Positions 11,720-35,850 of a stretch of 64,000 nucleotides of DNA are shown here, piece by piece. A program made the position numbers and the translations under genes. The notes beneath the pieces were generated by a model. The model saw nothing but the letters and a program-made list of their open reading frames with translations, ran no database searches and was not told the origin of the DNA. Numbering within the stretch: the first letter of the stretch is position 1; every line of letters begins with the position of its first letter. Origin of the DNA: an uncultured bacterium (GTDB lineage Bacteria; Babelota; Babeliae; Babelales; Babelaceae); assembly GCA_963848965.1 (NCBI GenBank), contig CAWKFG010000001.1, forward strand, positions 96,001 to 160,000. Direction: 5' to 3'.

Positions 11720-13663
11720 ATGCATAAAATACTACTTTTTTACTGTATAGGCACCTCTCTTACAATGCAAGGAATGAAGAGAGAACAGGAGCCCATCGAC
11801 CATAAAGCACTAGAGAAAAAGCACAAATGCTCGAATGATGCACCAATGTTTTTACTTGTACAAGCGCTTAAAGAATCAAATGTAGAAAAAGTGCGTGAGT
11901 TATTAGCTTTATATACAGATATTAATGCTCATATTCATGAGGGAAAAACTGCTTTATATATAGCAGCACAAGGCGGTAATAGTACGATTATAAAAATGTT
12001 GCTTGACGCAGGAGCAAGTCCCAATAGCTCCTGTATAACAGCTCAAGGAAAAACGGGAACTCCTCTTTTTATGGCTATATACAGGAAGCATACGGAAATA
12101 GTTGATATGTTCATTAGTGCTGAAGCCTTTATTCATGTATCCGATAGCAGCGGTGTTACTCCTTTAATGGTAGCTTCCTATAGTGGGAGTCTTGAGATAG
12201 TAGAAAAATTACTTGCTTGTGATGCGCCTGTTAATGCTCAAAATGAAGATGGTTGGACTGCTTTAATGTTTGCAGCACAGGAAGGTTACAAAGAAATAGT
12301 GCATGTGCTTATATGTGCTAACGCAGATGTCAATGCACACAGTAGTAATGGTTTAACTGCTTTGCATTTGGCTGTACAAGAAAGTCATACAAAAGTGATG
12401 AAGCTATTGCTTAATAACGGAGCTGAGCTTGATAGAACATATACAAATGAAGAAGGTATGGCAGATATCACTTCTTTAATGGACGCAGTAGAGTGTGGGC
12501 ACAAAAAGATGGTAACCTATCTTCTTGAAAAAGGTGCAGATATTAATGCTCAAAATGCTTGTGGTGATACGCCCTTAATGCTTGCTGTAGAACAGGGAAA
12601 TAAAGAAATAGCGGAGCTACTTATTGCACAAGGTGCTGACATGGATATGCAAGATATTGATGGAGTAACTGCTTTGCATACAGCAGTACATCAGGAACAG
12701 ACAGAAATACTAAAGCTTCTGTTGCATAACGAAGCTAACCCTCATAGTGGGCGCAATGAAGTTGGTGAAGGAGAAACTATTATAGCGCAAAATGTAACAC
12801 CCCTTATGGATGCATCTGATAGAGGATATAAGGAGATAGTGCATACGCTTATTACGTCCGGGGCCTATATTAACGAATATGATACTCGAGGATACAGTGC
12901 CTTATTGTATGCTGCAAAAGGAGGTTATAATGAGATACTGCTTATGCTCCTTAAGCATCAAGCATGTTTTACTTTACAAGATAAGGGTATAGTAGAAACG
13001 AGAGGGAATGAATGGCCGCTAGAAAGTAAAATGCTTTTAAAGCTTTGTTTAATGTCAGGGATGCAGATGTATAGAAACAACTCTTTATCATATATACAGC
13101 AGATAATAAAAGAATGTATGTTACAGGGTATATATAAAAGGATGTGTCAATGTAGTTCTACACAATGCTTTCATCAGACAGTGCCTATGGTGCTCAGTAT
13201 ATTTGGTGATAAAGAAGGAACTGAAACTTTGCTAAAAGTAGGTTTACCGCTTTGGTACCTTAATGCTCAAGATGCAGACGGTAGAACAGCGCTTATGTAT
13301 GCCATTATTTTTAGAAATTACGATATAGCACAACTTCTTATGCAAGCATATGAAAGAATAGCATACCAGTGCTATGAAGCCTTGCACAGGGAAGTAGATT
13401 CTGTAAAACAAGTACAGCCTAAACAGGAATTAGTAAAAGCAGAAAGAGCAATAAATATCTGTGATAAACAGGGTAAAAATGCTCTTGCTTATGCTCTTGA
13501 GAAGAATGATAAAGATATGGTTCTCAGACTTTTACAAGCAGGTGCTCGGCCAAGTATAGAGATTATAGAAAAGATAGCTGCGCTCGCAGACAAAACTATT
13601 CTTTTGCAGCTTATACTAAAAGGCTTTATTCAACCAAATTATGAATACAAAGTTATTTTTTGA
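11720..13663 (+). CDS. Exported ankyrin repeat protein
   Basis: Signal-like N-terminus; multiple G-x-TPL/TAL ankyrin repeats. Confidence 0.9.
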   Translation: MHKILLFYCIGTSLTMQGMKREQEPIDHKALEKKHKCSNDAPMFLLVQALKESNVEKVRELLALYTDINAHIHEGKTALYIAAQGGNSTIIKMLLDAGASPNSSCITAQGKTGTPLFMAIYRKHTEIVDMFISAEAFIHVSDSSGVTPLMVASYSGSLEIVEKLLACDAPVNAQNEDGWTALMFAAQEGYKEIVHVLICANADVNAHSSNGLTALHLAVQESHTKVMKLLLNNGAELDRTYTNEEGMADITSLMDAVECGHKKMVTYLLEKGADINAQNACGDTPLMLAVEQGNKEIAELLIAQGADMDMQDIDGVTALHTAVHQEQTEILKLLLHNEANPHSGRNEVGEGETIIAQNVTPLMDASDRGYKEIVHTLITSGAYINEYDTRGYSALLYAAKGGYNEILLMLLKHQACFTLQDKGIVETRGNEWPLESKMLLKLCLMSGMQMYRNNSLSYIQQIIKECMLQGIYKRMCQCSSTQCFHQTVPMVLSIFGDKEGTETLLKVGLPLWYLNAQDADGRTALMYAIIFRNYDIAQLLMQAYERIAYQCYEALHREVDSVKQVQPKQELVKAERAINICDKQGKNALAYALEKNDKDMVLRLLQAGARPSIEIIEKIAALADKTILLQLILKGFIQPNYEYKVIF

Positions 13664-18109: not shown

Positions 18110-18179
18110 CGTGCCTTAAAGATACTTTGTGGATACCTCATTCTCGTGGGGAGCGAGATTTAATAAATCAAGGTACGTT

Positions 18180-19016
18180 ATGCTTCTAAAAATATTATAT
18201 ACTTTACCACTTTTACCATTTTTATGCCTCTATAGTATGGAGGCTCCGCCTAAGGAAGACAAAAATTATAATGACTTTGTTATTCTCTGTCAAGCTCTTG
18301 AAAAAGGTAATAAAGAGCTTATTGCTCAACTTACCTTTCAGTTAAATATAAATAGTCCAGCCACCTTTCTTTTAAATGAGCCTCTCTTACACTGGATACT
18401 TTTTAGAGCAGAACTTGCATGGATTCCTGAGGGATTACGTCAAGATTATAGGTATGAGCTTGTAACATGCTTATTGATCTGGGGTGCAGATAAGGATATT
18501 CAAGATGCTTATGGTATGGCTGCTCTTCATAAGGCAGCGATGGGAGGAGACAAGCGGCTTGTGATGTTTCTTGTAGCTCATGACGTATATATCAATTGTC
18601 GATCCTTGAGTGGTTGGACTCCTTTATCATATGCGATTGCTCAAGGACATGTACCTATAGTTTCTTATTTATTAGAATGTACTTCTGCTCTTATTACACT
18701 TGGTAATAATGTGTGGGAAGGAGATTATAAGCTTGCAGTAGACCATCTTGAGAGAGAAGTCAAGTTTTTGTCGGTCTTAAAGAACGTAGAGCAAGGACAA
18801 ATTGCACGGCTAAAAGAGCGTGTTCTGCAAAGAGCTGAAATAGTAAAGATACTTAAAACTCACTTATGTTCGGTAAAAGGAAGATATGCTCTTCTTCGCC
18901 GAAAATGCTTCTTATGTCACCGCCGATTTTATAAAAGTGATATGCTCTTAATTTGTGACTATCAGGGCTATTTTGCTCATGGTAGATGTATTAAAGGTTA
19001 TAAGGAAAAAAGATAA
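18180..19016 (+). CDS. Exported ankyrin repeat protein with C-terminal Cys/His (RING-like) motif
   Basis: Start at MLLKILY (18180); ankyrin repeats; C-terminal CFLC...ICDYQGYFAHGRCI. Confidence 0.8.
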   Translation: MLLKILYTLPLLPFLCLYSMEAPPKEDKNYNDFVILCQALEKGNKELIAQLTFQLNINSPATFLLNEPLLHWILFRAELAWIPEGLRQDYRYELVTCLLIWGADKDIQDAYGMAALHKAAMGGDKRLVMFLVAHDVYINCRSLSGWTPLSYAIAQGHVPIVSYLLECTSALITLGNNVWEGDYKLAVDHLEREVKFLSVLKNVEQGQIARLKERVLQRAEIVKILKTHLCSVKGRYALLRRKCFLCHRRFYKSDMLLICDYQGYFAHGRCIKGYKEKR

Positions 19017-20313: not shown

Positions 20314-21297
20314 TTAGAGTAAAACAGGAAGCTTTTCGCCAGTTGGTTGTCGCGCTATAAGTGAAAGAAGACGAATTGCTAGTTCATACAGTCCAAGTTT
20401 TGTAGCATATTCAATAACTTTAGTAGTAGGTCGAGCACCACTATCTGTCAGTGCTTTGACGAAGCGGATATCTCCTGTTTCAACTGCATGCATAAAAGCA
20501 GACTTGCCTTCAGTGTCAGCTACGTTTAATTCTTTTCTTAGTCCTTGAGGTATATATGCTTTAACAAGAGTTTGGACAATTTCAAAGTTACCAAACATAA
20601 GAGCGTACATAAGGGGAGTACGACCATACTCATCTTTATGATTTATATATTCAAAAGGAAGCTTAAGTTCTTCAATAAGATGGTGCACAACTGCTTGTTG
20701 TCCAAAAATAGCAGCGTAATGAAGGTATTGTGGATTTAGTGTGTTAGTAAGTTGAATAGAATCGGTGATGCATTTCAAGGGATTAACAAAGTAACCTTGA
20801 GTGGTAAGCATAGTGTGGAGAGTCAAAAGAGAATGAATTTCCCTTTGGTTTTCATTTTGCGCAATGTCCAAAGCTGTCTGCTGTACTGTATCTGTAAAAC
20901 CATAATTTTTATGAATGAGGATTGGTCTTTGAGCATTACTATCTGCACCTGCTTTTAAAAGAAGTATAACTATGTTTCTATGCCCAAAAAGAGTAGCGAG
21001 CATAAGTGGAGTAAGGTTAAATAGTCCATTTTTATAGAGTGGTTTATTAAGAGCTACGTCTGTTTTGCACAGTTCTTGTACTGCTTCTATATTATTCTCT
21101 TTTATTGCTTTTATGAGAGCTTTATAGTGAAGATCTTCATTTTCTTTCAAAAAATAAGCATAAAGTGCACCTTTGACCATAGTGCTATAACTTATTACAG
21201 GTTGTTTAGGTGTACCTGTAAGAGTTCTTTTCATGCTATAAGCAGAACTTGCTATACCTGCAAGAAGACAAAGAAAAAAGAGTTTTATTTTATACAC
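20314..21297 (-). CDS. Exported ankyrin repeat protein
   Basis: Signal peptide; TPLMLA and GRTPLMYA ankyrin repeats. Confidence 0.88.
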   Translation of the reverse strand: MYKIKLFFLCLLAGIASSAYSMKRTLTGTPKQPVISYSTMVKGALYAYFLKENEDLHYKALIKAIKENNIEAVQELCKTDVALNKPLYKNGLFNLTPLMLATLFGHRNIVILLLKAGADSNAQRPILIHKNYGFTDTVQQTALDIAQNENQREIHSLLTLHTMLTTQGYFVNPLKCITDSIQLTNTLNPQYLHYAAIFGQQAVVHHLIEELKLPFEYINHKDEYGRTPLMYALMFGNFEIVQTLVKAYIPQGLRKELNVADTEGKSAFMHAVETGDIRFVKALTDSGARPTTKVIEYATKLGLYELAIRLLSLIARQPTGEKLPVLL

Positions 21298-22733: not shown

Positions 22734-23813
22734 CTATTTTTTTCGAACACTGATAGCTGCTCTCAATATCTTTACTATTTCTTTATGATGCTCTTTTTCT
22801 GCATACATTATGGCTGTCCAACCCCTTTCATCTTGAATAATAGCGTTTGCTCCTGCATCTAGAAGCATTTTGACTATTTTTTGATTGTTTTCAGAATCAC
22901 CACCTTTAGATGAGGCAATCATTAGAGCAGTATGTCCAGAGTTGTTTTTAGCGTTGACATTTATTCCTGCTTCTATTAGTACCTTTGTTCTACCTACACT
23001 GTTAAAGAATACTCTAACTGCATACATTAATGCAGTATATCCCTTATTGTCTTGAGCATTAACCTCAGCCTTACGAGAAAGCAACTTTTTCAGTATCTCT
23101 TCTGAGTCATGAAAAGAATCTGCCGCTGCTATTAAAGGGGTAAATCCAATATCGTTGCGTGCATTAATAGTAGCGCCAGCATTTAAGAGAGGTTCTATGA
23201 GGTCTTTATGTCCTTCATGGGCAGCATAGAGTAAAGCGGTCCACCCGCCGTTTGTCGGAAGATTAATGTTAGCTCCAGCATCAATGAGCATTTGTACTAG
23301 TTCCTTATTACCATTGAATGCAGCTGCTGGCAGTGCTGTAGCATTATACCTATCCTTAAGATTGACGTTGGCTCCCCTTTGTATAAGCAAAGCCACAATG
23401 CTCGCACAGTTTTGTTGAGTAGCGTATACAATAATAGTATCGACTGGGTCTTGCATTTTATTGATACTTACCCCTGCTTTTAGAAGAAGTTTAGCTTTGT
23501 CTACAGCATTATCTTTTATTAACTTTAATAGTACAAGGGCTTTTTGCTCTTGTGATAAGCTTTCAGATAATAATTCTAACGCTAAACGCTTTTCTTGCTC
23601 AACAGTAAGTACGATCTTCTCCATAGCATTGAGAGCACATGAAAAACATAGGATAAAAAAGAAATAAAATAGTGATGATTGCCTTTGTGAGCAGAGCTTT
23701 ATGATTTCCATATGATTCCTTGAAATTTCCTCGAGCGCGTGACCCGGATGGATTTTAGACTGAAGAAATAGTACTGATAAAAGTCCAATTATTGTTTCTT
23801 TTTCTCTCATCAT
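22734..23813 (-). CDS. Exported ankyrin repeat protein (true start uncertain, probably nearer 23710)
   Basis: Hydrophobic LFYFFFILCFSCALNA-MEK followed by about 8 ankyrin repeats. Confidence 0.85.
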   Translation of the reverse strand: MMREKETIIGLLSVLFLQSKIHPGHALEEISRNHMEIIKLCSQRQSSLFYFFFILCFSCALNAMEKIVLTVEQEKRLALELLSESLSQEQKALVLLKLIKDNAVDKAKLLLKAGVSINKMQDPVDTIIVYATQQNCASIVALLIQRGANVNLKDRYNATALPAAAFNGNKELVQMLIDAGANINLPTNGGWTALLYAAHEGHKDLIEPLLNAGATINARNDIGFTPLIAAADSFHDSEEILKKLLSRKAEVNAQDNKGYTALMYAVRVFFNSVGRTKVLIEAGINVNAKNNSGHTALMIASSKGGDSENNQKIVKMLLDAGANAIIQDERGWTAIMYAEKEHHKEIVKILRAAISVRKK

Positions 23814-24190
23814 GAGCTTAATAATTTTTCTAAGATACTATTCTTAACTATACTACTTTTTGGCAAATTGTCATGTAGTAAGAAAAGTTTTATAAATAGT
23901 AGAAAGAACAGACTTTTCAAGGATACTCTCTTAGTTTTTAGAATAGTCTAACATCCAGTTTATGATGATTTTGCATGTCAATATTATTAGACAAATAGGA
24001 TACTTGTGATAAAATATAAAGACAATATTTATTATTTTAAATCAAAATTAAAAAAACAATAGGAAATTGTATGCTGTACCGTCTTTTAATCTTCTTTTCT
24101 TTATCTATCTTCTCTTTTCAATTGAGCGCTATGGAGCAGATATATAAAAAGCCAGATAATCATAAAAATACCAAGCAAAAGGGTGACTTA

Positions 24191-25119
24191 GAGCCTATCT
24201 CTAAAATGGAAAAAAGGTTGAAAATATAATAAAATCTCCTTCTAAAGAATCGCGATCAACGATCAAGAAGGAGATTTACACATGTGTCATACAAAAAATT
24301 GTTATGAAGTATGCATAAACAAGAAGTTTCTTATAACTCCAAATTTATGGAAAGATATAGAAAAAATAATACCAAAAATAAGCGAAAAATCAAAGCGGGG
24401 AAGACCCTCAATGGATATGAAAAGAGCAATAAATGGTATCTATTATCTGTTAAGGACAGGTATACAATGGAATGCATTGCCTAGATGCTTTGGATCGTAC
24501 TCTGCTGTCCATAAACTGTTTCAAAAATTAAGGTCTGTCGAGTTCTTTAAATATTTATGGTATGCTGAACTTGACCAATATGATAAAATTCACGGACTTA
24601 GTCTAGAAACTCAAGCTGCTGATTGTGTTTATATTAAAGCGCCCTTGGGTTCAGAGAAAACAGGCAAGAGCCCAGTAGATAGGAGAAAATTAGGAACAAA
24701 ACGAAGCATATTAACTGATAAAAACGGTATAGTTATCGGTTGTGCGTTAGGTAGCGCTAATCAGCACGATTCTCAGCTATTTTTGGATACCTTATTATCC
24801 ATTCCTAAGCATATATCCATGCCTTATAGCAAAATTATAAGTTTAGATGCAGCTTATGATTCAGCGCAAATAAGAGCCTACTTGCTGCATTACAGCTATG
24901 TACCTAAAATAATGAAAAATAAAAGAAAAGCTAAAAATAAAGTTTATGGTGTACCAGAAGGTTATCAACGCTGGTTCATTGAACCTACGCATTCATGGCT
25001 CAATCGGTTTAGGCGCTTGTTTGTTCGTTATGAAAAATACGCTTTAAACTATATGGCTATGGTTTATTTTGCCGTAGCTATCATTATTTTTAACAAATTA
25101 TGAATTTACGGATAGGCTC
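24191..25119 (+). mobile_element. IS5-family insertion sequence (929 bp)
   Basis: Terminal IRs GAGCCTATCtcTAAA / TTTAcgGATAGGCTC; TTA target duplication at 24188-24190 and 25120-25122. Confidence 0.92.
24282..25103 (+). CDS. IS5-family DDE transposase
   Basis: GRP..D...INGIYYLLRTGIQWNALP, LDAAYDS, RWFIEPTHSWLNRFRRL..RYEK. Confidence 0.93.
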   Translation: MCHTKNCYEVCINKKFLITPNLWKDIEKIIPKISEKSKRGRPSMDMKRAINGIYYLLRTGIQWNALPRCFGSYSAVHKLFQKLRSVEFFKYLWYAELDQYDKIHGLSLETQAADCVYIKAPLGSEKTGKSPVDRRKLGTKRSILTDKNGIVIGCALGSANQHDSQLFLDTLLSIPKHISMPYSKIISLDAAYDSAQIRAYLLHYSYVPKIMKNKRKAKNKVYGVPEGYQRWFIEPTHSWLNRFRRLFVRYEKYALNYMAMVYFAVAIIIFNKL

Positions 25120-27552
25120 TTACTTATAGAAGCTGCAAAAAATAATGATATAGCCACAGTTGAAGCTCTTTGTTTGGCAAAAGTAAACATTAATGCTCAA
25201 GATAAGAACGGAAATATAGCTTTGTTGAGCGCTGCAGAAAAAGGTTATAAAGAAATGGTAGCACTGCTTTTAGATAAAGGCGCTCAGGTTAATATTAAAG
25301 ATGAGTACGGTGATTTTCCCTTAAAGTATGCTGCACAAAGGGGTTATGCGGATATAGCAGAGATGCTTTTGGCACGTGGTGCTGATGTTAATGCTCAAGA
25401 TCGTTTAGGGTATACTGCTCTATATTGGGCTATTATTAATCGCTATAAAGAGATAGTTGCTATGCTTCTCAAGAAAGATGCTTCTATCATCACTCAAGAG
25501 AGATGGAATTACAACCTCTTGATAGAAGCTTCAGGAAAAGGTGGTAAGGAAATAGTAGAATTGCTGATAAATGCAGGTGCTGATGTTAATGCTCAAGAGG
25601 ATAGCTGCGGTTATACTCCCTTGATAAGTGCTGTAACGAAAGACAATAAAGAAGTAGCTGCTTTACTTCTAGATAAAGGGGCCAATGTTAATGCTAAGGC
25701 TTTAGAAGGGGAGACTGCCTTAACGCAAGCAACCAGACGTGCTTTAGGCCGCCCTAAGAAAATAGTACGATTGCTTCTAAGCAGAGGTGCTGATGTCAAT
25801 GCTCAAGATAATTATGAGCGTACTTCATTAATGGAAGCAGTACGATATGGAGATGAAAAACTAGTAGCTTTGCTTATAGGTGCAGGTGCTACTATTAATG
25901 CCCAAAATGCTCTCGAAAAAAGAGATGTAATGCAAGAAGGTCATAGGAAGATTTTTCATCTTTTAAGGCTATGTAGTAATCCAGAAGTACAAGTCTATCT
26001 TAAAGATCCTAAGGCCTATGCTCAAAATAAGCAGTATATTGATGGTGAGATAACAACGCTTATGCTCGCTTGTATCTTTGGTCATACTGAAATTATATCT
26101 TCATTTGAGAATTGCACGGATGAGTATCTTAATGTAGGAGGCTTAGGTTATACAGCTACTGAGTATGCTTGTATATTTAATAAGAAGAGCCTTTCTACTC
26201 TTGTTAATACATTTGGTGGCCGTTTACTTGTACAACCTGCAAAAGAGGGTGATATAAATACAGTTAGAAGCCTTTGTCTAGCGGGAGTAAATGTTAATGC
26301 TAAAGATAAGCAGGGTAGTCCTGTGTGGACATGGGCAGCTGTAAGCAAGGGCCGTGAGAGATTAGTAACTTTGTTCTTAGATAAAGGTGCTAATATTAAT
26401 GCTACAGATGTTTTCGGTTCTACTGCTTTGGCGTCACAAGTAAGATGGAAAAGACATAAAATGATGGCGCTGCTTTTAAAAAGAGGTGCTGATGTTAATA
26501 TCCAAGATGACAAAGGCAAAACTGCTTTACATTGGGCTGCTTATTGGGGATTTAAGAAAACAGTAACACTGTTGTTAAACAATGGTGCAAAAACTACTCT
26601 TCAAGATGAATATGGTCGTACCGCTATAATGCATGCTGCAAGAGAAGGCCATAAAGAAGTAGTAATGCTACTATTGAATAAAGATAGTGATCTTAATGTT
26701 CAAGATAAAATGGGTAAAACTGTTTTAAACTATGCTGCAGCGTGTGGTAACAAAGAAATGGTAACGCTGCTTTTAGAAAAATCTACTACTGCAAAGTATT
26801 CTGATATCTTATTGTCTGCGGCTGAGTTTGGTCATGTGGAATTAGTAGCCTGGATTTTGGACAAAGGAGCAGATATTAATACTCAAGATAAACATGGTCG
26901 TAGTGCCTTAATGCATGCTGCATCTAATGGACACAAGGAAATGGTGCTCCTACTTTTAGCTCGCGGTGCACATAGTAATCTTCAAGATAGTGAAGGCTTT
27001 ACTGCTTTAATGAAAGCTGTAAGAGAAAATTTTAAAGAAACAGTAGCGCTGCTTATAGGTGCAGGTGCTGATATTACTAGTCAAAATAAACTCAATAAAA
27101 CTGCTTTAATACTTGCTAGAGAGCATAATTACAAAGATCTTATACAACTTCTAGAATTGTGCCAAAACTCTGAAGTAAAAGAATATCTTAACAATCCTCA
27201 AGCATATATACAAAAAGAGCAGTATATTATAGATAGAACAACCACACTTATGCTTGCTTGTATATGTGGTCATACAGATGTTATTTCTTCTTTTAAAGAG
27301 TGCTCCAATGAATACTTAAACCCACAAGATAGTTATGGTTATACAGCTTTTGACTATGCTTATAAGTTTAATAAAAGAAGTGCTGTTACGCTTATTCATA
27401 TATTTGGTGATAAAATAGATAAAATAAAAAATAACAAACAGGAGCTTCTTAAAAATGCGTTAGAAAAAGAAGATTTGTTATTAATTAATGCCTTGTTAAG
27501 TGCTGGGGTTCTACCTTCTTGTGGAATAACTCAAGGAGCCCAAGATGCAGGA

Positions 27553-27645
27553 TACTTCACCATATTACCAAAAGATCTCTTTGTTCAGCTTCTTCTTTTT
27601 CTTAATAGTCAAGAAACAAGTACTGGAAAGTCTTAAAAGGGCTTT
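27553..27645 (+). repeat. Direct repeat copy 1 (3' end of the ankyrin/F-box gene)
   Basis: Near-identical to 28139-28232. Confidence 0.85.
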
Positions 27646-27677
27646 TTCTCTTTTAGTTTGACAGAACCAACGACGTG

Positions 27678-27709
27678 GTCGGTGAAGGGGCAAAAGCCCC
27701 CTCACCGAC
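27678..27709. other. GC-rich palindromic hairpin
   Basis: GTCGGTGAAGGGGC-aaaa-GCCCCCTCACCGAC, 14-bp stem with one mismatch. Confidence 0.75.
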
Positions 27710-27788
27710 TTGAGTTCTTATTTTCAAGTTATATAATTGTATTTAAGTATTTACACAATAAGCTTTCTAATAAGATGCTAGGTTTTTG

Positions 27789-28075
27789 ATGAAAACACTT
27801 TATTTACTCTACTTTGCATATTCTCTTCGTATGCTTATACCATGAAAGAAGAGAGAGCTTCTAATAATATTCAACAAGCAGACGCCATCATGGAAGAAGA
27901 CTCTGATGATATGCCTATATCATCAAAAAAATGTACTTATACTCTTCAAAGTCATGCTGACTCTGAGATCAATAAAAAGAGGCAAAAAAAAGAGCATGTT
28001 TGTGACAAATGTGGTAAAGATTTTACTCAACATGGACATTTAATTAGTCATATGCGTATTCATAACAAAGGCTGA
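27789..28075 (+). pseudogene. Exported C2H2 zinc-finger protein with 1-nt frameshift in the signal peptide
   Basis: MKTLYLL / LLCIFSSYAYT-MKEE joined by a 1-nt shift; KKRQKK then HVCDKCGKDFTQHGHLISHMRIH. Confidence 0.7.
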
Positions 28076-28138
28076 ATTATAAAAAAATTATTCTTAAGGT
28101 GTGGGTAATTCACTTCCAATATGACAGATTTTGCATCG

Positions 28139-28232
28139 TACTTCGCCACATTACCAAAAGATCTCTTTATTCAGCTTCTTCTTTTTCTTAATAGTCTAAG
28201 AAACAAGTATCAAAAAGTCTTAAAAGGGCTTT
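28139..28232 (+). repeat. Direct repeat copy 2
   Basis: Near-identical to 27553-27645. Confidence 0.85.
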
Positions 28233-28312
28233 CTCTTATCTTAAGAGGCAGTGCCAAAACTGATTGAAGCAAAGCTTTCATGTTTTTCAAGCAAAATCAC
28301 GCATACTTAAAA

Positions 28313-28340
28313 TTGACAAATATTACATTGGTGTTAAAGT
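28313..28340 (+). promoter_or_regulatory. Putative promoter of ankyrin gene
   Basis: TTGACA-N16-TAAAGT; paralogous leaders at about 23988 and 33731. Confidence 0.5.
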
Positions 28341-28387
28341 AGTTATAATTTCCATGTCTTAAAAAATTAAAAACAATAAGGCGCTGT

Positions 28388-31300
28388 ATGTTTTACTACC
28401 TTTTTATGATTCCTCTCTTATATTTTTCATTTTACCTTAATGCTATGGAAAAAGTAGCTGAAACAAGGTCACAAGAAAATCATATTATTTTAAACCTTTC
28501 TCCTGAGAGTATGCTTCTAAAAGCTGTGTTTAATAAGAATATAGATGAAGTTCAATCTCTCTGTCAGTCAAAAGTAAATGTTAATGTACAAGCTAAAGAT
28601 GGTAATACTCCTTTAATAGTTGCGGCAATAAAAGAATCTAAAGAGATAGTAGAAATACTTTTAGCTGCAGGTGCTGACGTATGTATTCAAAATACTAAGG
28701 GTGCTACAGCTTTAGTTGGCGCTATAGAGTTTAATCAAAAAGATATCGCAAGGGTACTTTTAGACGCAGATAAAGGTAGTGATATTAATGCTTGTATTGC
28801 AAATGGTCTTACTCTTTTGGGCCATAGCGTATCTCATGAGCATGAAGAACTAGTAAATTTATTTCTTGAAAAAGGCGCAAGCGTTAATGTTCGGGATACA
28901 TTTGGGCGTACAGCACTGATGTATGCAGTAGCCAAGGGAAATAAGAAAATAGTAGAGCTTCTTTTAGGTGCAGGTGCTGCTCTTGATATAAAAGATAACC
29001 AAGGCTGGACAGCAATAACATATGCAGCTTGCTATTTTCATGAAGAATTACTCTTGCTCTTTAAAAAAAGAGATAGAGAAAGGGTGCTTAAAGAGATTAA
29101 TGAGCTTTTACTGGCTAGTATACAGAATGATAACATCCGTTTGTTCACTCTGTTATTAAAATGTGGTGCCAGCGTTTACACTAAAGACATTACTGAAACA
29201 CCTGTTCTCATACGAGCTGCAAAAAGAGGTAATGAGGGAATGGTTAAAATGCTTTTAGATGAGCATGCGTACATTGATAAGACAGATTCTAAAGGGTGTA
29301 CTGCTTTAATGTATGCTGCACAAAATGGATATGAAGGTATAGTAAAACTGCTTATATCCAGAGGAACAGATATCAATTGGACAAGTTTTAATAACCTTAC
29401 AGCTCTTATGTACGCTGCAGCTAATGGCAGAGAAGAAATAGTAAAAATATTGTTAGATGCAGGTGCTGATAGTAAAAAGAAAGATCGTCAGAATACTACT
29501 GCTTTAATGTATGCGGTTAAAAACAATCATAAAGGAGTAGTAACATTACTTTTAGATAGATGTATACAAGATATTACTAAAGCTGATACTGCAGCTCTTG
29601 TATCTTCGGCTATTGAGAGTGAAAATAAAGATATGGTAGCGCTCCTTATAGATCGCGGGACTGACGTTAACCTTAAAGTTGGATACTATGATACTCCTCT
29701 CTTAAGTTTGGCGGCTTCTAAGGGCTCTAAGGAAATAGTAGGCTTACTTTTAAATAAAGGTGCTCGTATAAATGTTCGAGATAATGATGGCAAAACTGCC
29801 TTAATCCACGCAGCAAAGGATGGACATATTGAAGTAGTTAAGCTGCTTCTAAGTGGAGTATCAACAGCTGAGGGTAAAGATAGAGAGCCATCATTATTAA
29901 GAGATACTGCTGATATTAACGCCAAGGATAAGGATCTTAATTATACTGCTCTAATGAGGGCTGTAAAGAATGGACACAAAGAAGTAGTAGCCTTGCTTGT
30001 AGATAGAGGGGCAGATCTTGATATTCAAGATATAATGAATAAAACAGCCTTGATGCTTGCTACTGAGGGTAGACTTAAAGAAATAGTAGCATTGCTTATG
30101 GATAAAGGTGCTGATTCTTCTATTGCTAACAGTGAGGGGGATACACCGTTGATAAAGGCTGCAATGAATGGGCATGAAGATATAGTGACTGTACTTCTTG
30201 ATAAGGGTGCTGATATCAATGAGCGAAATTCTGTTCACGGTAATACTGCATTGGAATTTGCTGCAGGTGAAGGGCACAAGGAAGTAGTACAAATACTTTT
30301 AAAAAGGGGCTCTAAGGTTACTATTGCAAATAGATATAGAGGTACTGCCTTAACGTCAGTTGTATCAAGGAGCCATAATAAGGAAATACTAGAACTTCTT
30401 ATAGCTCATGGCGCAGACGTTAATACTATTGATCGAGAAGGTTGGACTGCTTTAATGTGGGCTTCCTATCAAGGTAGTAAAGAGCTGGTAAAAGTACTTT
30501 TAGATGCAGGAGCTGACGTTAATGCTAAAAGAGAATATGGTCCAACTGCTTTAATGAAGGCTGTCGAGAAAAAGCAAAAAGAGATAGCAGAAATGCTTAT
30601 TAAGGCTGGCGCAGATGTTACTATCCAAACTGGCAATAGCTGGACTGCTTTAATGGCAGCTGCCCAAAAAGGTGACAGGGAAATAGTAGCATTGCTTTTG
30701 GCTCATGGTGCAAACATTAATTTAGTAAATACTCTGTATGGTAATACTGCCCTCATGCATGCTCTAGTTACTGGTAAGAAAAAAGTAGCAGAAATGCTTA
30801 TTAAGGCAGGTGCTGATGTTAATGTGCAAAATAATGAAGGAGATACTCCTTTGATGGAAGCTATAAAGAGAAGATGTAAAAAGTTGGCGATTCTGCTTAT
30901 AGAAAGAGGTGCGGATATTAATGTTAAAAATAAGAAAAGCATAACTGCTCTCCTTGATGCTGCAAAAAAAGGAGATAAAGAACTAGTAAAAGTGCTTATT
31001 GACGCCGGTGCTGACGTTAATGCTCAAGGTAGCATAGATGGCTGGACGCCCTTAATGTATGCTGTACATAACGGATATCAAGAAATAGTGGTTTTGCTTA
31101 TAGGTTCATATGCAAAACTTAATCTGCAAAATAATAAAGGTGAAACTGCCTTAGATATAGCGATGAATAACAAATCTCAAGGAAGTAAAGATAATGTTCA
31201 TCTTATAACCTTATGTAATGATCCTGAAGTGCAAGCTTATCTTAAAGATCCTGAAGGGTACGCTCAAAGTAAGCGATACATTAACGGCACTCTGACAGTA

Positions 31301-31666
31301 TTGATGCTTGCTTCTATTTTTGGTCACTTTAAGGTTATAGAATTATATAAAGAGTGCTCTGGCAAGTACCTTAATGTATACGATGATACTGGGTCTACCG
31401 CACTCGATTACGCTTTAAAATATAATAGCCCTAGCGCTCGTATTCTTATTCATATTTATGGTGATAAAATTGACAGGGTAAAAGAAGATAAGCAAGGACT
31501 TCTTAAAATAGCGATAGCACAGAAAAATATGCTCTTAGTACAAGACCTTTTAGGTATTGGCGCAAAGCCTTCTTTTGATGTATCTCAAAAAACAAGAGAA
31601 GCAAGCTATCTTAATGCACTACCAAAAGAGCTATTTGCTCATCTTCTTCTTTTTCGAGGTAATTGA
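28388..31666 (+). CDS. Large exported ankyrin repeat protein with C-terminal F-box-like motif
   Basis: Signal peptide ..YLNA-MEK; more than 20 ankyrin repeats; ends YLNALPKELFAHLLLF. Confidence 0.92.
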   Translation: MFYYLFMIPLLYFSFYLNAMEKVAETRSQENHIILNLSPESMLLKAVFNKNIDEVQSLCQSKVNVNVQAKDGNTPLIVAAIKESKEIVEILLAAGADVCIQNTKGATALVGAIEFNQKDIARVLLDADKGSDINACIANGLTLLGHSVSHEHEELVNLFLEKGASVNVRDTFGRTALMYAVAKGNKKIVELLLGAGAALDIKDNQGWTAITYAACYFHEELLLLFKKRDRERVLKEINELLLASIQNDNIRLFTLLLKCGASVYTKDITETPVLIRAAKRGNEGMVKMLLDEHAYIDKTDSKGCTALMYAAQNGYEGIVKLLISRGTDINWTSFNNLTALMYAAANGREEIVKILLDAGADSKKKDRQNTTALMYAVKNNHKGVVTLLLDRCIQDITKADTAALVSSAIESENKDMVALLIDRGTDVNLKVGYYDTPLLSLAASKGSKEIVGLLLNKGARINVRDNDGKTALIHAAKDGHIEVVKLLLSGVSTAEGKDREPSLLRDTADINAKDKDLNYTALMRAVKNGHKEVVALLVDRGADLDIQDIMNKTALMLATEGRLKEIVALLMDKGADSSIANSEGDTPLIKAAMNGHEDIVTVLLDKGADINERNSVHGNTALEFAAGEGHKEVVQILLKRGSKVTIANRYRGTALTSVVSRSHNKEILELLIAHGADVNTIDREGWTALMWASYQGSKELVKVLLDAGADVNAKREYGPTALMKAVEKKQKEIAEMLIKAGADVTIQTGNSWTALMAAAQKGDREIVALLLAHGANINLVNTLYGNTALMHALVTGKKKVAEMLIKAGADVNVQNNEGDTPLMEAIKRRCKKLAILLIERGADINVKNKKSITALLDAAKKGDKELVKVLIDAGADVNAQGSIDGWTPLMYAVHNGYQEIVVLLIGSYAKLNLQNNKGETALDIAMNNKSQGSKDNVHLITLCNDPEVQAYLKDPEGYAQSKRYINGTLTVLMLASIFGHFKVIELYKECSGKYLNVYDDTGSTALDYALKYNSPSARILIHIYGDKIDRVKEDKQGLLKIAIAQKNMLLVQDLLGIGAKPSFDVSQKTREASYLNALPKELFAHLLLFRGN

Positions 31667-31676
31667 AAGGATTATA

Positions 31677-33137
31677 ATGTTATATGTAGTATATACTCTT
31701 TCTTTGCTTTGTGTTTCATTGTCCATTACTGCTATGCATGAAACAGATAGCAAAGAATTACAGAACCCCTGTAGCAATGTAGAGCTTTTATCAGAAGAGC
31801 AAAAGGCTTCTTTACTTTTTGAAGCAGTAAAAAATAATGATGTAACGGCTGTGAGAAGTCTCTGTTCTAGCATAAAAGATATTAATGCTCACTATAATGA
31901 GAAGATAGGCTTCACTTCTTTAATGTGGGCAGCTGCTCAAGGAAATAAGGAAATAATTGCCCTTCTTCTTAAGCATGGAGCTCGGACTGAAATACGAAAT
32001 GTACGTAAAATGACTGCTCTATCATATGCTGCAGAAAACGGACATCTAGAGATAGTAAAAATGCTTTTAGATAGTGGTGCTTATAGTGATGTTCAACGTA
32101 ATGATGGGGAAACGCCATTAATATCTTCAATAAAGGATGGCCATAAAGAAGTTGCAAAGCTTCTTATAGCACGAGGTGCTAATGTAAGCTTGCAAGATAA
32201 CATTGAACATTCAGCTCTTGATGCTGCTCTTAAGCTGGCGGATAAAGAGCTCATAAATTTGATTGTTAGAGCAGATGTACACATTAACGAGTACTATATG
32301 TCTGGTTATACTCGTTTAATATCTTCCTTAAAATATCACTACGCTAGAGAAGGAGCTTTGCTGCTTGATACAGATATTGATGTTAATGCTCCAAGTAAAG
32401 ATGGTGATACTCCTTTAATAGTGGTCTCAGAGCAAGGAAACTTAAAAGCGGTAGAGCTACTATTACAGAAAAAGGCGGATGTTAATAGTGCAAATAAGAA
32501 AGGTACTACGGCTTTAATGATGGCAGTAATACATGGATACAAAGAGATTGCAGCTCTGCTTATAAAAGCAGGGGCAGATTGTAATGCTTGCAATAGCTAT
32601 GGATACACTCCTTTGAAGTTTGCTGATGGCAAGAACCATAAAGAAATCGTGCGACTATTAGAGTTGTCTAATACGCCTGAAGTGCAAGCATATCTAAAAA
32701 ACCCTCAAGCATATGCTCAAAAAGAATGCTCTATTGTAGGAAAAACAACACCGCTGATGCTTGCTTGTATATTTGGGCACTACGATGTTATTTCTTCTTT
32801 TAAGAACTGCCCGCGTAAATACCTTATTGAATCAGATGATAGCGGTTATACAGCTTTTGATTATGCTTTTATGTTTAACATACGTAGTGTTGCTACCCTT
32901 ATTCATACTTTTGAAAAGAAAGATATTGTTTATACCTTTGGCAAAAATGCTGTTGCCAGTACTTATGACTGCCTTGAAAAGGCAATAGAAAGTAAAAACA
33001 CAGAAGCAGTTAGTGCTCTTTTAGGTATTGATATTGTTCCATCTTTTGGCATAGTTCAAGGAATAGAAGAGGCTGGATATTTCAATGTTTTACCTAAGGA
33101 TCTTTTTGTGAAATTGCTTTTTTTCACGAATAGTTGA
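31677..33137 (+). CDS. Exported ankyrin repeat protein with C-terminal F-box-like motif
   Basis: Start MLYVVY at 31677 (RBS AAAGGA); ends YFNVLPKDLFVKLLFF. Confidence 0.9.
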   Translation: MLYVVYTLSLLCVSLSITAMHETDSKELQNPCSNVELLSEEQKASLLFEAVKNNDVTAVRSLCSSIKDINAHYNEKIGFTSLMWAAAQGNKEIIALLLKHGARTEIRNVRKMTALSYAAENGHLEIVKMLLDSGAYSDVQRNDGETPLISSIKDGHKEVAKLLIARGANVSLQDNIEHSALDAALKLADKELINLIVRADVHINEYYMSGYTRLISSLKYHYAREGALLLDTDIDVNAPSKDGDTPLIVVSEQGNLKAVELLLQKKADVNSANKKGTTALMMAVIHGYKEIAALLIKAGADCNACNSYGYTPLKFADGKNHKEIVRLLELSNTPEVQAYLKNPQAYAQKECSIVGKTTPLMLACIFGHYDVISSFKNCPRKYLIESDDSGYTAFDYAFMFNIRSVATLIHTFEKKDIVYTFGKNAVASTYDCLEKAIESKNTEAVSALLGIDIVPSFGIVQGIEEAGYFNVLPKDLFVKLLFFTNS

Positions 33138-33362
33138 ATAATGCTGGGTAAAAGCCTTGCCTCTCCACTTAGGTTTGGCCATTCTTAATCTTTTAGAGTT
33201 AAGTATAAATGGCGAAAAGTTTATAGTGCCTACACTGTGAGATCTATTTGTTTGGTTCTTAGAAAAAATTAGAGCGGGCTCGTAATAATCGAGTTGGGCT
33301 CTAAGATTGTTTTTTTATAGTTTAGTACTGCCGCGGTATGCTTTTTTCTTGTATTAAGGATA

Positions 33363-33551
33363 CATTGCTTAAGAAATAGTGCAAAAATTTTTAGTATAAG
33401 TAAAATGTATCATGCTTTAAAATCAATGGGATATGAAATTAGCAAGAATACGCTTTATGATTATATGTCCTATTTTGAAGATGCATATTGTGTTTTTTCA
33501 TTAAGTAAATTTGATCTGTCTCAGCGAAGATCTTGCAGAAAGAGTAAGTAA
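33363..33551 (+). pseudogene. Fragment of AAA+ ATPase (COG1373 / DUF4143-type)
   Basis: FSISKMYHALKSMGYEISKNTLYDYMSYFEDAYCVF resembles the winged-helix region of that family; no start codon or P-loop. Confidence 0.65.
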
Positions 33552-33811
33552 AAGAGCTGTTGTATATTACAAAATTATGTATGGCGTATAGGTAAATTAC
33601 AGGACAACTAGAACCTTGAACTACCTTCCTCAAATAGAATAACGTTGCAATAAAGCTTAAGCAGGAATTATTGGTATTATTAATAGTAAATAGGTTTTCA
33701 GAAGTATATCCTATGCCAAAAATGCATTATTAGACAAAGTAAGATAAGTATGTTAAAATAACTCAAGATGCTTTTATTTTCAATCAAAATTAAAAAATAA
33801 TAGGAAGTTGT

Positions 33812-34989
33812 ATGCTTTACTATCTTTTAATGTTCTTTTCTTTTATATTTTTTCTTTTCAACTGAACGCTATGGAGCAAACCCTTGAAGAGTAATTTGCT
33901 TCAATGGAGAAATTAAAAATAGTGCATCTTAAAAAACAGTTTGATGTTCGGATAGAAGATTAATCAGAAAAAAGGAAAGTTGCTTTACTTGAAAAGTAAT
34001 AAACTACTATTCAATGCAATCAAGGAGGCGTTGAAGAAATTATCTTAACAATGTTATTGAAAGTCTTTTTCAAGCTAAAGTAGCTAGTAATGCACCAGAT
34101 GAGTATGGGCAACTTCCCTTAATATATGCTATATGGCAAGACAACGCATCGTTAATTTCGCTGCTTCTAGCAAATGGTACCCATGTTAATGATAAAGATG
34201 CTGAAGGTAAAACAGCATTGCTCCATGCAGCTCACCGAGACTATCAAGATATAGTGCACATATTGCTAGATAGGAGCAGAGGTAAACGCTCAAGATAACA
34301 AGGGTAACACTGCTTTAATGGGATGTGTAGATTTCTTAATCTATTCTTTATCGGCTCTCCTAATACGTGCAGGTGCTGATGTTAATGTTCAAGATAATCA
34401 AGGTAAGCTTGCTATAGCACATCTTCCTGTGATTTTAAGAGAAGTTCCTGCATATCAAGATAGAAAAAGAATGAAGCGCTTTTTGAAATTGTGTCAATTA
34501 CCTGAAGTACAAGCATATCTTAAAGACCCTCTAGCATTTGCTACTATCCATAAAGAAGAGTATTTTATCGGTAAAATAACAGCCCTTATGCTTGCGTGCA
34601 TATTTTGTCATGAAGAAGTTATCTCTTTCTATAAAGATTGCAGCGTCAATACCTTAATTTAGTAGATATTATGGTAACAGCGCTTTTGATTATGCTGTTG
34701 ATTACGATCGAAGTCTCGAAGCATTTATCTATACATTTGGTAAGGAAGTAGACAATTACAGCTAAAAGGTCGCACTATTCTTGAAAATGCTATGAAAAAA
34801 GAAAGAGTTCCTCTTATAGATGCAATTTTAAAAGCGGGGGTACAGTGCCCCTTTAAGGTTATTCAAGGTACATCAAAAGCTGGTTATTTAAATAAATTGC
34901 AGAGTAATCTTTTTGCTGAATTGCTTCTCTTTAAAAAAAGAGGTGAAATGCTATATTCAGATTACACTGCATGGCAGTTTAAAAACTAA
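33812..34989 (+). pseudogene. Decayed ankyrin / F-box-like paralog
   Basis: Leader and signal peptide (MLYYLLMFF...QLNAMEQ) paralogous to 24071; several stops and frameshifts; LCQLPEVQAYLKDP module and AGYLNKLQSNLFAELLLF tail. Confidence 0.85.
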
Positions 34990-35475: not shown

Positions 35476-35850
35476 ATGCCTACAATTAATCAGCTTTCGC
35501 GCTCACCGAGGGTGAAAGTAAAAAGAAAATCAAAGTGCCCAGCGCTGAAGGGGAATCCTCAAGCACGTGGCGTATGTACCCGTGTGTTTACTCAAACACC
35601 TAAAAAGCCTAACTCAGCGCTTCGTAAAGTTGCTCGTGTGAAGCTTTCAACAGGTATGGAAGTAACAGCATACATAGGTGGAGAAGGACATAACCTTCAA
35701 GAGCACTCTGTTGTATTAGTGCGTGGAGGACGTGTGCCTGATTTGCCTGGTGTGAAATATCATGTTGTTCGTGGTGCTCTTGACACGGCAGGAGTAGAAA
35801 ACAGAAAGCAAGGTCGCTCGCTCTATGGCGCGAAGCGTACAAAGAAGTAA
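35476..35850 (+). CDS. rpsL: 30S ribosomal protein S12
   Basis: [18 protein letters not shown]. Confidence 0.99.

Follow-up and report, generated by a model that had tools for sequence, protein, structure and literature searches.

The question raised by this locus is what role is played by a short conserved helix found at the very C-terminus of ankyrin repeat proteins encoded side by side in an uncultured member of the Babelaceae. The stretch analysed (hereafter the window) comprises 64,000 nt, corresponding to C1:96001-160000 of a 1.73 Mb assembly of 37 % GC (GCA_963848965.1), and the array of interest holds four genes for leader-bearing ankyrin proteins, numbered 1 to 4, in which the terminal helix (the tail) follows a degenerate-ankyrin domain (the pre-tail domain). 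A sequence-only reading had viewed these as secreted ankyrin proteins sharing a modular, conserved helix of F-box type at the C-terminus, and that description stands: the best match of the helix is the first helix of the F-box, and true F-boxes occur in the lineage. The motif is a real, selected, lineage-wide and portable module, present on about 50 secreted ankyrin, leucine-rich repeat (LRR) and other proteins. Judging from sequence alone, it is reasonably probable that the window proteins are adaptors exported via Sec and type II secretion, whose one-helix F-box would dock on host Skp1. The array is composed as follows.

24071..24187, + strand: 5′ piece of gene 1 encoding a hydrophobic Sec-type leader, 82 % identical at the DNA level to the start region of gene 4
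24191..25119, + strand: IS5-family insertion sequence of 929 bp, with a 3-bp TTA target duplication; the genome has four identical copies
24282-25103, + strand: IS5-family transposase reading frame (Pfam DUF4096 and DDE_Tnp_1)
25123..27636, + strand: body of gene 1, with 16 Pfam Ank stretches, ending in the tail motif
27550..27606, + strand: tail motif of gene 1 (one-helix, F-box-like)
28121..28267, + strand: orphan fifth tail copy in a 48-codon frame, a local duplicate of the gene 1 3′ end
28388..31666, + strand: gene 2, intact, 1092 aa, with leader, 23 Pfam Ank stretches, pre-tail domain and tail
31604..31654, + strand: tail motif of gene 2
31677..33137, + strand: gene 3, intact, 486 aa from the ATG at 31677, with leader, 7 Pfam Ank stretches, pre-tail domain and tail
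33075..33125, + strand: tail motif of gene 3
33812..34989, + strand: gene 4, a pseudogene with many stops and frame changes, retaining remnants of leader and ankyrin, and the pre-tail domain
34882-34932, + strand: decayed tail of gene 4, its proline lost

Leader, repeats and tail share a single frame only in genes 2 and 3. Pairwise identity among genes 1–3 is 36–38 %, with the pre-tail domain and the tail common to all. Within gene 1, the IS5-family element sits between the leader piece and the body, and the body contains the pre-tail domain twice (about 25945-26218 and 27133-27409), for which reason the gene is probably a fusion of two paralogs. The orphan tail (28139-28236) matches 27553-27649, i.e. 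the gene 1 tail and its 3′ flank, at 91 % identity over 98 nt. The array is turning over by duplication and loss, and comprises two live genes, one split by an insertion sequence, one pseudogene and one orphan tail. The sequence-only reading had reported a tandem ankyrin array with four C-terminal motif peptides; genes 1–3 do end in the tail after their ankyrin repeats, and all four copies are present on the + strand, but half of the array is decayed, the coordinates assigned to the peptides were 3 bases too high, and the fifth, orphan copy at 28121-28267 was overlooked.

With regard to the wider distribution of the motif, a profile seeded on 12 C-terminal copies was iterated over the 1600 open reading frames (ORFs) of at least 120 codons in the genome, using a cut-off above the best reversed-ORF score. 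It yields 58 matches in 57 ORFs, every one of them above that score. Placement is terminal for 56 of these, against about 20 expected at random: 18 lie ≤30 residues from the C-terminus, 38 lie ≤75 residues from the start behind a hydrophobic leader, and 2 are elsewhere. The motif is thus not special to the C-terminus, as had been supposed, since 38 of the 58 copies follow a signal peptide instead; nor is it restricted to ankyrin proteins, some of the C-terminal carriers being LRR proteins. Ankyrin repeats are found in 39 of the 57 carriers, the remainder bearing LRRs or being of no assigned type. Among six close paralogs, identity is 0.59 for the 16-residue tail core, 0.38 for the linker and 0.16 for the residues after the core, and the core displays uncorrected proportions of non-synonymous (pN) and synonymous (pS) differences of 0.26 and 0.64, respectively. 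Leaders were called using a custom hydrophobicity-plus-cleavage-pattern rule, not SignalP, which detects them in 40 of 57 motif ORFs, 106 of 147 ankyrin ORFs and 145 of 1435 others, and which identifies in genes 2 and 3 a hydrophobic leader with a small-residue-M pattern.

Beyond this genome (labelled G000; other G labels denote the genomes of relatives, and L labels individual loci or proteins), a combined motif profile that includes 16 sequences from relatives matches 40 of 201 phylum genomes at E ≤ 0.01, G000 included, whilst the N-terminal motif profile matches 15 of 40 family genomes (with 12 matches in G203 and 11 in G173). The C-terminal tails of G203 closely resemble those of the window, and in the relatives inspected the motif is again mostly located behind a leader or at the C-terminus. 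Within G000 itself, a 31-kb cluster at C1:578602-609806 contains about 14 paralogs in which the N-terminal form of the motif precedes ankyrin repeats. Separately, three small proteins of 144–179 aa (P0008, P0021 and P0024) start with two tandem motif copies and have no leader.

The likeness of the tail to the F-box is seen in the residues themselves. All three tails display the helix-1 pattern (L-P-x-E/D-phi, phi at +7 and +8, and an aromatic at +10, where phi is hydrophobic), and the poxviral consensus phi-P-X2-phi-X3-phi (PMC6232478) is present in the three open-frame tails and the orphan, the pseudogene being without its Pro. True F-boxes of the lineage provide the comparison: Pfam F-box-like exceeds its cut-off in 33 of 201 phylum genomes, reaches E ≤ 0.001 in 48 of 201 and is found in 32 of 32 scored G173 candidates, and an alignment of 31 lineage F-boxes retrieves Fbw7, FBXO42 and Skp2 from the PDB with E-values of 3e-8 to 1e-7. 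As a rule, these lineage F-boxes are preceded by a signal peptide and contain an additional helix. Position-specific matrices of 21 columns were compared, for 26 F-boxes on the one hand and for ubiquitin-binding motif (UBM) sets of 4 or 14 after thinning on the other; the statistics of the C-terminal class use 14 copies, four of the 18 C-terminal matches having been excluded as a separate BC-box-like type. With either UBM set, 14 of 14 C-terminal tails are closer to lineage F-boxes than to UBMs. An aromatic residue ten positions after the conserved proline (P+10) occurs in 21 of 26 F-boxes, 12 of 14 C-terminal tails and 32 of 38 N-terminal copies, and in 0 of 4 independent UBMs.

Relatives furnish sequences that appear intermediate. 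Four of ten loci scored (L301, L296, L304 and L320) reach 15–19 bits on a motif profile built from G000 only as well as 15–20 bits on the downstream F-box region, L304 being over the Pfam F-box cut-off; weak matches (E about 0.01) to F-box-like, PRANC and F-box_4 come from the C-terminal tails of L299, L313 and L317. By profile comparison, then, the motif grades into full F-boxes through intermediates in relatives. It falls outside PRANC and the cellular F-box family by profile, and would most likely work like a poxviral truncated F-box. In G173, which belongs to the same family, Pfam recognises at least 32 F-box genes (135 candidates; L270-L285); they form tandem clusters, every F-box lies behind a leader, and many contain an additional helix ahead of the final F-box helix. 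A further locus, L077 (G209), has the motif followed by WD40-like repeats (judged by eye), which is the layout of cellular Fbw proteins.

A number of results weigh against docking on Skp1. Nothing in the genome exceeds the cut-offs of Pfam F-box, F-box-like, PRANC or SOCS_box, and the window tails match no Pfam F-box or PRANC model; the profile check proposed alongside the sequence-only reading came back empty, with 0 Pfam families matching the last 78 residues of genes 1–3 at E ≤ 10. PRANC gives a single sub-cut-off match elsewhere in the genome, and matches 3 of 56 motif members with a best E of 0.014. Profile searches of the PDB with motif alignments A1, A2 and A8, the C-terminal profile among them, return no F-box protein at E ≤ 10, and genes 1 and 2 obtain only 4.3 and 4.0 bits, respectively, with the full lineage F-box profile, less than the 6.3 of the best reversed ORF. 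On the F-box matrix the median of motif copies is 15 bits compared with 28 for true members, and an aromatic at P-5, a UBM-like trait, is present in 12 of 14 C-terminal tails and 1 of 26 F-boxes. Profile–profile comparison over 21 columns barely separates the two families for the C-terminal class (F-box 93.5 %, UBM 91.7 %). For the N-terminal class stripped of canonical members, hhalign gives 79.7 % against F-boxes, and its downstream part alone is non-significant (E 0.062), with 6 of 36 sequences at ≥3 bits compared with 1 of 81 controls; an uncleaned hhalign value of 96 % for A2 against lineage F-boxes was set aside as partly circular, A2 having held four canonical-looking F-boxes. The three helices (about 40–50 residues) of a cellular F-box are also lacking, as the proteins end 14–22 residues after the proline, with one helix predicted.

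Structure prediction speaks, at low confidence, for a free terminal helix. An AlphaFold model covering the final 199 residues of gene 3 has a confident ankyrin part and a tail helix with a predicted local distance difference test (pLDDT) value of 40–47; this low-confidence model, based on 6 sequences, puts the helix past a disordered 17-residue linker, unpacked on the repeats. Foldseek on the gene 3 model returns ankyrin/DARPin matches alone, none at E ≤ 0.001. The N-terminal class (70 aa) is modelled with a predicted template modelling (pTM) score of 0.31, and a wide structural search with it is uninformative, having a best Z of 4.4 and no F-box or UBM among the best 50 matches. In the ESM Atlas, the tail region is best matched (0.94) by an OspC-like ankyrin cluster, with nothing above 0.76 for the N-terminal motif.

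Amongst the alternatives, the motif could represent a ubiquitin-binding UBM (PF14377), such as those of REV1, Pol iota and HUWE1, although we regard this as unlikely. Effectors would then be brought to ubiquitylated host proteins or membranes, or would undergo coupled ubiquitylation of their own, with no cullin involved. Three observations that favour a UBM count at the same time against the F-box: Pfam UBM is the commonest weak match (8 of 56 motif members, compared with 3 for PRANC and 2 for F-box-like); the PDB ranking runs from REV1 (E 0.027), HUWE1 (0.057) and Pol iota (0.39) to Fbw7 (1.3), none of them significant; and in 1.84 billion representative proteins, searched in a manner that favours multi-copy motifs through score summing, Pfam UBM is present in 5 of 22 matches and Pfam F-box in none. 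At E ≤ 1 the genome contains 9 Pfam UBM matches, at least 7 of which are at motif positions. The UBM pattern, a helix-turn-helix around Leu-Pro with hydrophobic residues at P-5, P-4, P+3 and P+7 (PMC8468184), is indeed found here, and the N-terminal class keeps described UBM contacts, namely an aromatic at P-5 (33 of 38), Glu at P+6 (32 of 38) and R/Q/K at P+4 (26 of 38). By hhalign that class stands at 95.8 % for UBM and 94.2 % for F-box, and it is a toss-up, 23 of 38 copies being closer to the F-box with the larger UBM set.

The window tails themselves do not conform. In UBMs, Glu at P+6 (which forms a salt bridge to ubiquitin Arg42) and an aromatic at P+11 contact ubiquitin (PMC8468184); both are absent from all three window tails, which have Q, H and K at P+6 in genes 1–3, together with a hydrophobic P+4 and an aromatic P+10, and which show no UBM match over the cut-off. 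Across the genome, Glu at P+6 occurs in 6 of 14 C-terminal copies compared with 32 of 38 N-terminal ones. No UBM exceeds the Pfam cut-off in any of 201 phylum genomes, and the best score in this genome (17.5 bits against a cut-off of 23.3) belongs to the N-terminal class, the window tails being unmatched. Moreover, because UBM-like first helices occur within the full F-boxes of relatives (L320 and L301), such likeness can arise by drift, and it is mainly to drift that we attribute it, although a change of partner may also have occurred. The UBM reference sets are small, and the larger was partly chosen by the profile of this analysis; a first set was profile-picked and filtered on P+4/P+6, and the comparison was redone with independent HUWE1-type proteins.

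Another alternative, which seems improbable to about the same degree, is that the motif derives from the F-box but serves no working SCF (Skp1–cullin–F-box) ligase, instead binding another host adaptor of Skp1/BTB fold, or being a decoy or a handle for secretion, chaperoning or localisation. Its scores midway between F-box and UBM, at about half the true F-box level, would suit such a role, as would its occurrence at either end of the mature protein. So would the endings of sister proteins: of the 43 proteins in which the pre-tail domain is terminal, only six (those that built the profile) carry the tail, which was therefore added to one subfamily; the other 37 lack the LP tail, and a sister set of ankyrin proteins sharing the domain ends in another conserved motif. 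This second C-terminal tag, [LI]F[KN], is found in 19 of 144 ankyrin ORFs and 1 of 1174 others, often after proline, its role being unassigned; it is carried by sister proteins with the pre-tail domain (e.g. C4:809804-820491 and C4:683214-698960), of which the window gene 20314-21297 is a distant member. As this sister set ends in an [LI]F[KN]-type motif, terminal tags of unassigned role evidently exist here. Conversely, the residues kept in the tail are those of F-box helix 1, the main source of Skp1 contacts (PMC4353913), and a general export signal is not indicated, since about 108 of 147 ankyrin ORFs are without the motif, 77 of them nonetheless bearing a leader.

The pre-tail domain subfamily itself looks genome-specific at the search sensitivity used, since a homolog search with gene 3 residues 320–486 found only two proteins, both of G000, and a scan of GTDB contigs for the domain found one unrelated Rickettsiales ankyrin only.

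A combined scheme is also conceivable, if doubtful and slightly less credible than either of the two alternatives above: the first helix of a captured F-box would have become a portable 17-residue tag, placed on about 50 secreted proteins per genome; its C-terminal copies would still bind Skp1, whilst the N-terminal copies, now without helix 3 but with the UBM glutamate, would bind ubiquitin or both partners. Were this so, a switch from F-box to UBM would be in progress, and these bacteria would possess a type of ubiquitin-reader family that our searches did not meet with.

Much less plausible is a SOCS/VHL box, in which the motif would be the cullin box (Cul2/Cul5 box) and, as in cellular ankyrin-SOCS proteins and poxviral ANK/BC proteins, Elongin B/C would be recruited together with Cul2 or Cul5. 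Cullin boxes do lie downstream of a BC box and contain a Pro that is critical, along with hydrophobic residues (PMC6232478), and several other G000 proteins have a BC-box-like stretch 13–19 residues before the LP helix (strict in L001 and L012; loose, with a pattern that has a 27 % chance rate, in L003, L008, L005, L011 and L014); the ESM Atlas additionally ranks a SOCS-box cluster fifth for the gene 3 tail region, with a score of 0.89, which serves as a lead only. For the window genes, however, this explanation was rejected, as no BC box ([TSP]-L-X3-[CSA]-X3-phi, 6–30 residues upstream) precedes the tails of genes 1–3, whether strict or loose. None is seen in the three closest paralogs or in five C-terminal tails of G203 either; the N-terminal copies adjoin the signal peptide and leave no space for one, and Pfam SOCS_box has no match in the genome. 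Elsewhere in the genome, L001, L002, L003, L004, L008 and G000 C2:39777-40547 are secreted, SOCS/VHL-like proteins with a BC-box-like helix and an LP helix 13–18 residues further on, none of them scored by Pfam SOCS_box, and in L008 the arrangement is followed by a window-type tail. As a few proteins show this arrangement, a second type of adaptor may exist in the genome.

Equally remote, and likewise rejected for the window genes, is the notion that the tail does no more than cap the ankyrin stack as a structural helix. The tail is an amphipathic helix that follows the last degenerate repeat and is recognised by no family model; however, the motif also occurs at N-termini and on proteins with LRRs or with no repeats, is absent from 37 of the 43 proteins that share the pre-tail domain, and is predicted, at low confidence, to lie beyond its disordered 17-residue linker.

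Docking of the tail on host Skp1 thus remains our preferred explanation, and the setting of the genome is compatible with it. The YidC encoded in the window shares 53 % identity with its Ca. Babela massiliensis counterpart, and among the matches listed (120 of 188) those with a taxon name are all Babela, Babeliaceae or Dependentiae. The genome also encodes ATP/ADP translocases and a type II secretion locus (L238; G000 C4:757001-777000) with three secretins, GspC, GspL/PilM homologs and a MoxR-type AAA ATPase. From the Babeliae affinity, the translocases, the secretins, GspC and GspL/PilM, we infer that the organism is an intracellular parasite of protists that possesses Sec and type II secretion. 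The leader would direct the protein through Sec to the periplasm, from which the type II system would release it into the host cell; there, going by what is known of the family, the variable ankyrin stack would capture a host protein, and the C-terminal helix, free and retaining only the loop and first helix of an F-box, would dock on Skp1. With the tail so docked, the host SCF ligase would ubiquitylate the captured protein, or Skp1 would merely be tied up. By comparison, the ankyrin proteins of Orientia use type I secretion.

Precedents for such a design are to be found in viruses and bacteria alike. The combination of ankyrin repeats and a C-terminal truncated F-box is established for poxviral ANK/F-box proteins (PRANC, PF09372; PMC4353913, PMC6232478), which keep two F-box helices, or only one in the case of CP77, and are reported still to bind Skp1 (PMC4353913). 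Shared with these are the N-terminal ankyrin stack, linker and C-terminal truncated F-box with phi-P-X2-phi-X3-phi, as well as an expanded paralog family with many truncated copies; in contrast, the present proteins are bacterial, have a Sec leader, retain the first helix only, show no match to PRANC (97 positions), and belong to a family in which the module is also N-terminal and on LRR bodies. For the Ank-PRANC effectors of Orientia tsutsugamushi, binding of Skp1/Cul1 is shown and the F-box-like motif was found only at a low cut-off (PMC4148323). Orientia is likewise an obligate intracellular bacterium in which Ank paralogs are numerous, pseudogenes adjoin mobile elements and an F-box-like motif is C-terminal, but the phylum studied here is unrelated, a protist host is inferred, PRANC is unmatched, and the leader is of Sec type with a type II system. 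Amoeba-associated Parachlamydiaceae possess hundreds of F-box effectors under birth-and-death evolution (PMC4209131); theirs are Pfam-detectable and type III-exported, whereas those here are below the Pfam cut-off, at either end and Sec-led.

Within the lineage itself, about a tenth of genes in Dependentiae/Babelota encode secreted ankyrin proteins, the function of which is called unknown (PMC6561590, PMC4378268). Of the 126 ankyrin proteins of Babela, which also has one F-box protein, 79 bear signal peptides (PMC4378268); of the 98 in Chromulinavorax, 78 % do so (PMC6561590), and lists of domains in TM6 genomes include the F-box (PMC4776705). These Babeliae (TM6) reports and the present genome have in common both secreted ankyrin proteins and F-box proteins; the available portions of the former contain no ankyrin protein with a C-terminal F-box-like tail, no family of about 50 carriers per genome and no N-terminal F-box with an inserted helix, as seen in relatives. 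Our literature search, outside of which lay most subscription papers and supplements, likewise found no C-terminal F-box-like tail, motif family or UBM in the lineage, and the term 'F-box' does not occur in the accessible part of PMC12172432. The suggestion that such proteins had not been described for the lineage accordingly needs narrowing: this form was absent from the literature searched, but F-box proteins as such had already been noted for the phylum (PMC4378268, PMC4776705). What is new here is the Pfam-invisible, either-end and expanded form of the F-box-like module. Should the tail be a Skp1-binding F-box, 39 of 147 ankyrin ORFs, about a quarter, would gain a testable job as SCF adaptors, and the F-box count of the genome would rise from none over the Pfam cut-off to about 50. 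The pairing of ankyrin repeats with a truncated F-box would then have arisen independently once again, in addition to its appearance in poxviruses and Orientia, and a single helix working at either protein end would be the minimal element for binding Skp1.

As for the surroundings of the array, four more leader-bearing ankyrin genes without the tail are located in the window (11720-13663, 18129-19016, 20314-21297 and 22734-23813), and the array stops just short of the rpsL-rpsG-fusA-tuf and ribosomal protein operons at 35476. A short remnant reading frame, which we take to resemble a fragment of an AAA-ATPase/DUF4143-type gene, lies between genes 3 and 4 (33380-33550, + strand). A small frameshifted gene (27789-28075, + strand) encodes a leader, one C2H2 zinc finger (Pfam zf-C2H2 over cut-off) and a basic stretch resembling a nuclear localisation signal; 15 ORFs of the genome have a C2H2 pattern and 11 a MYND-like pattern.

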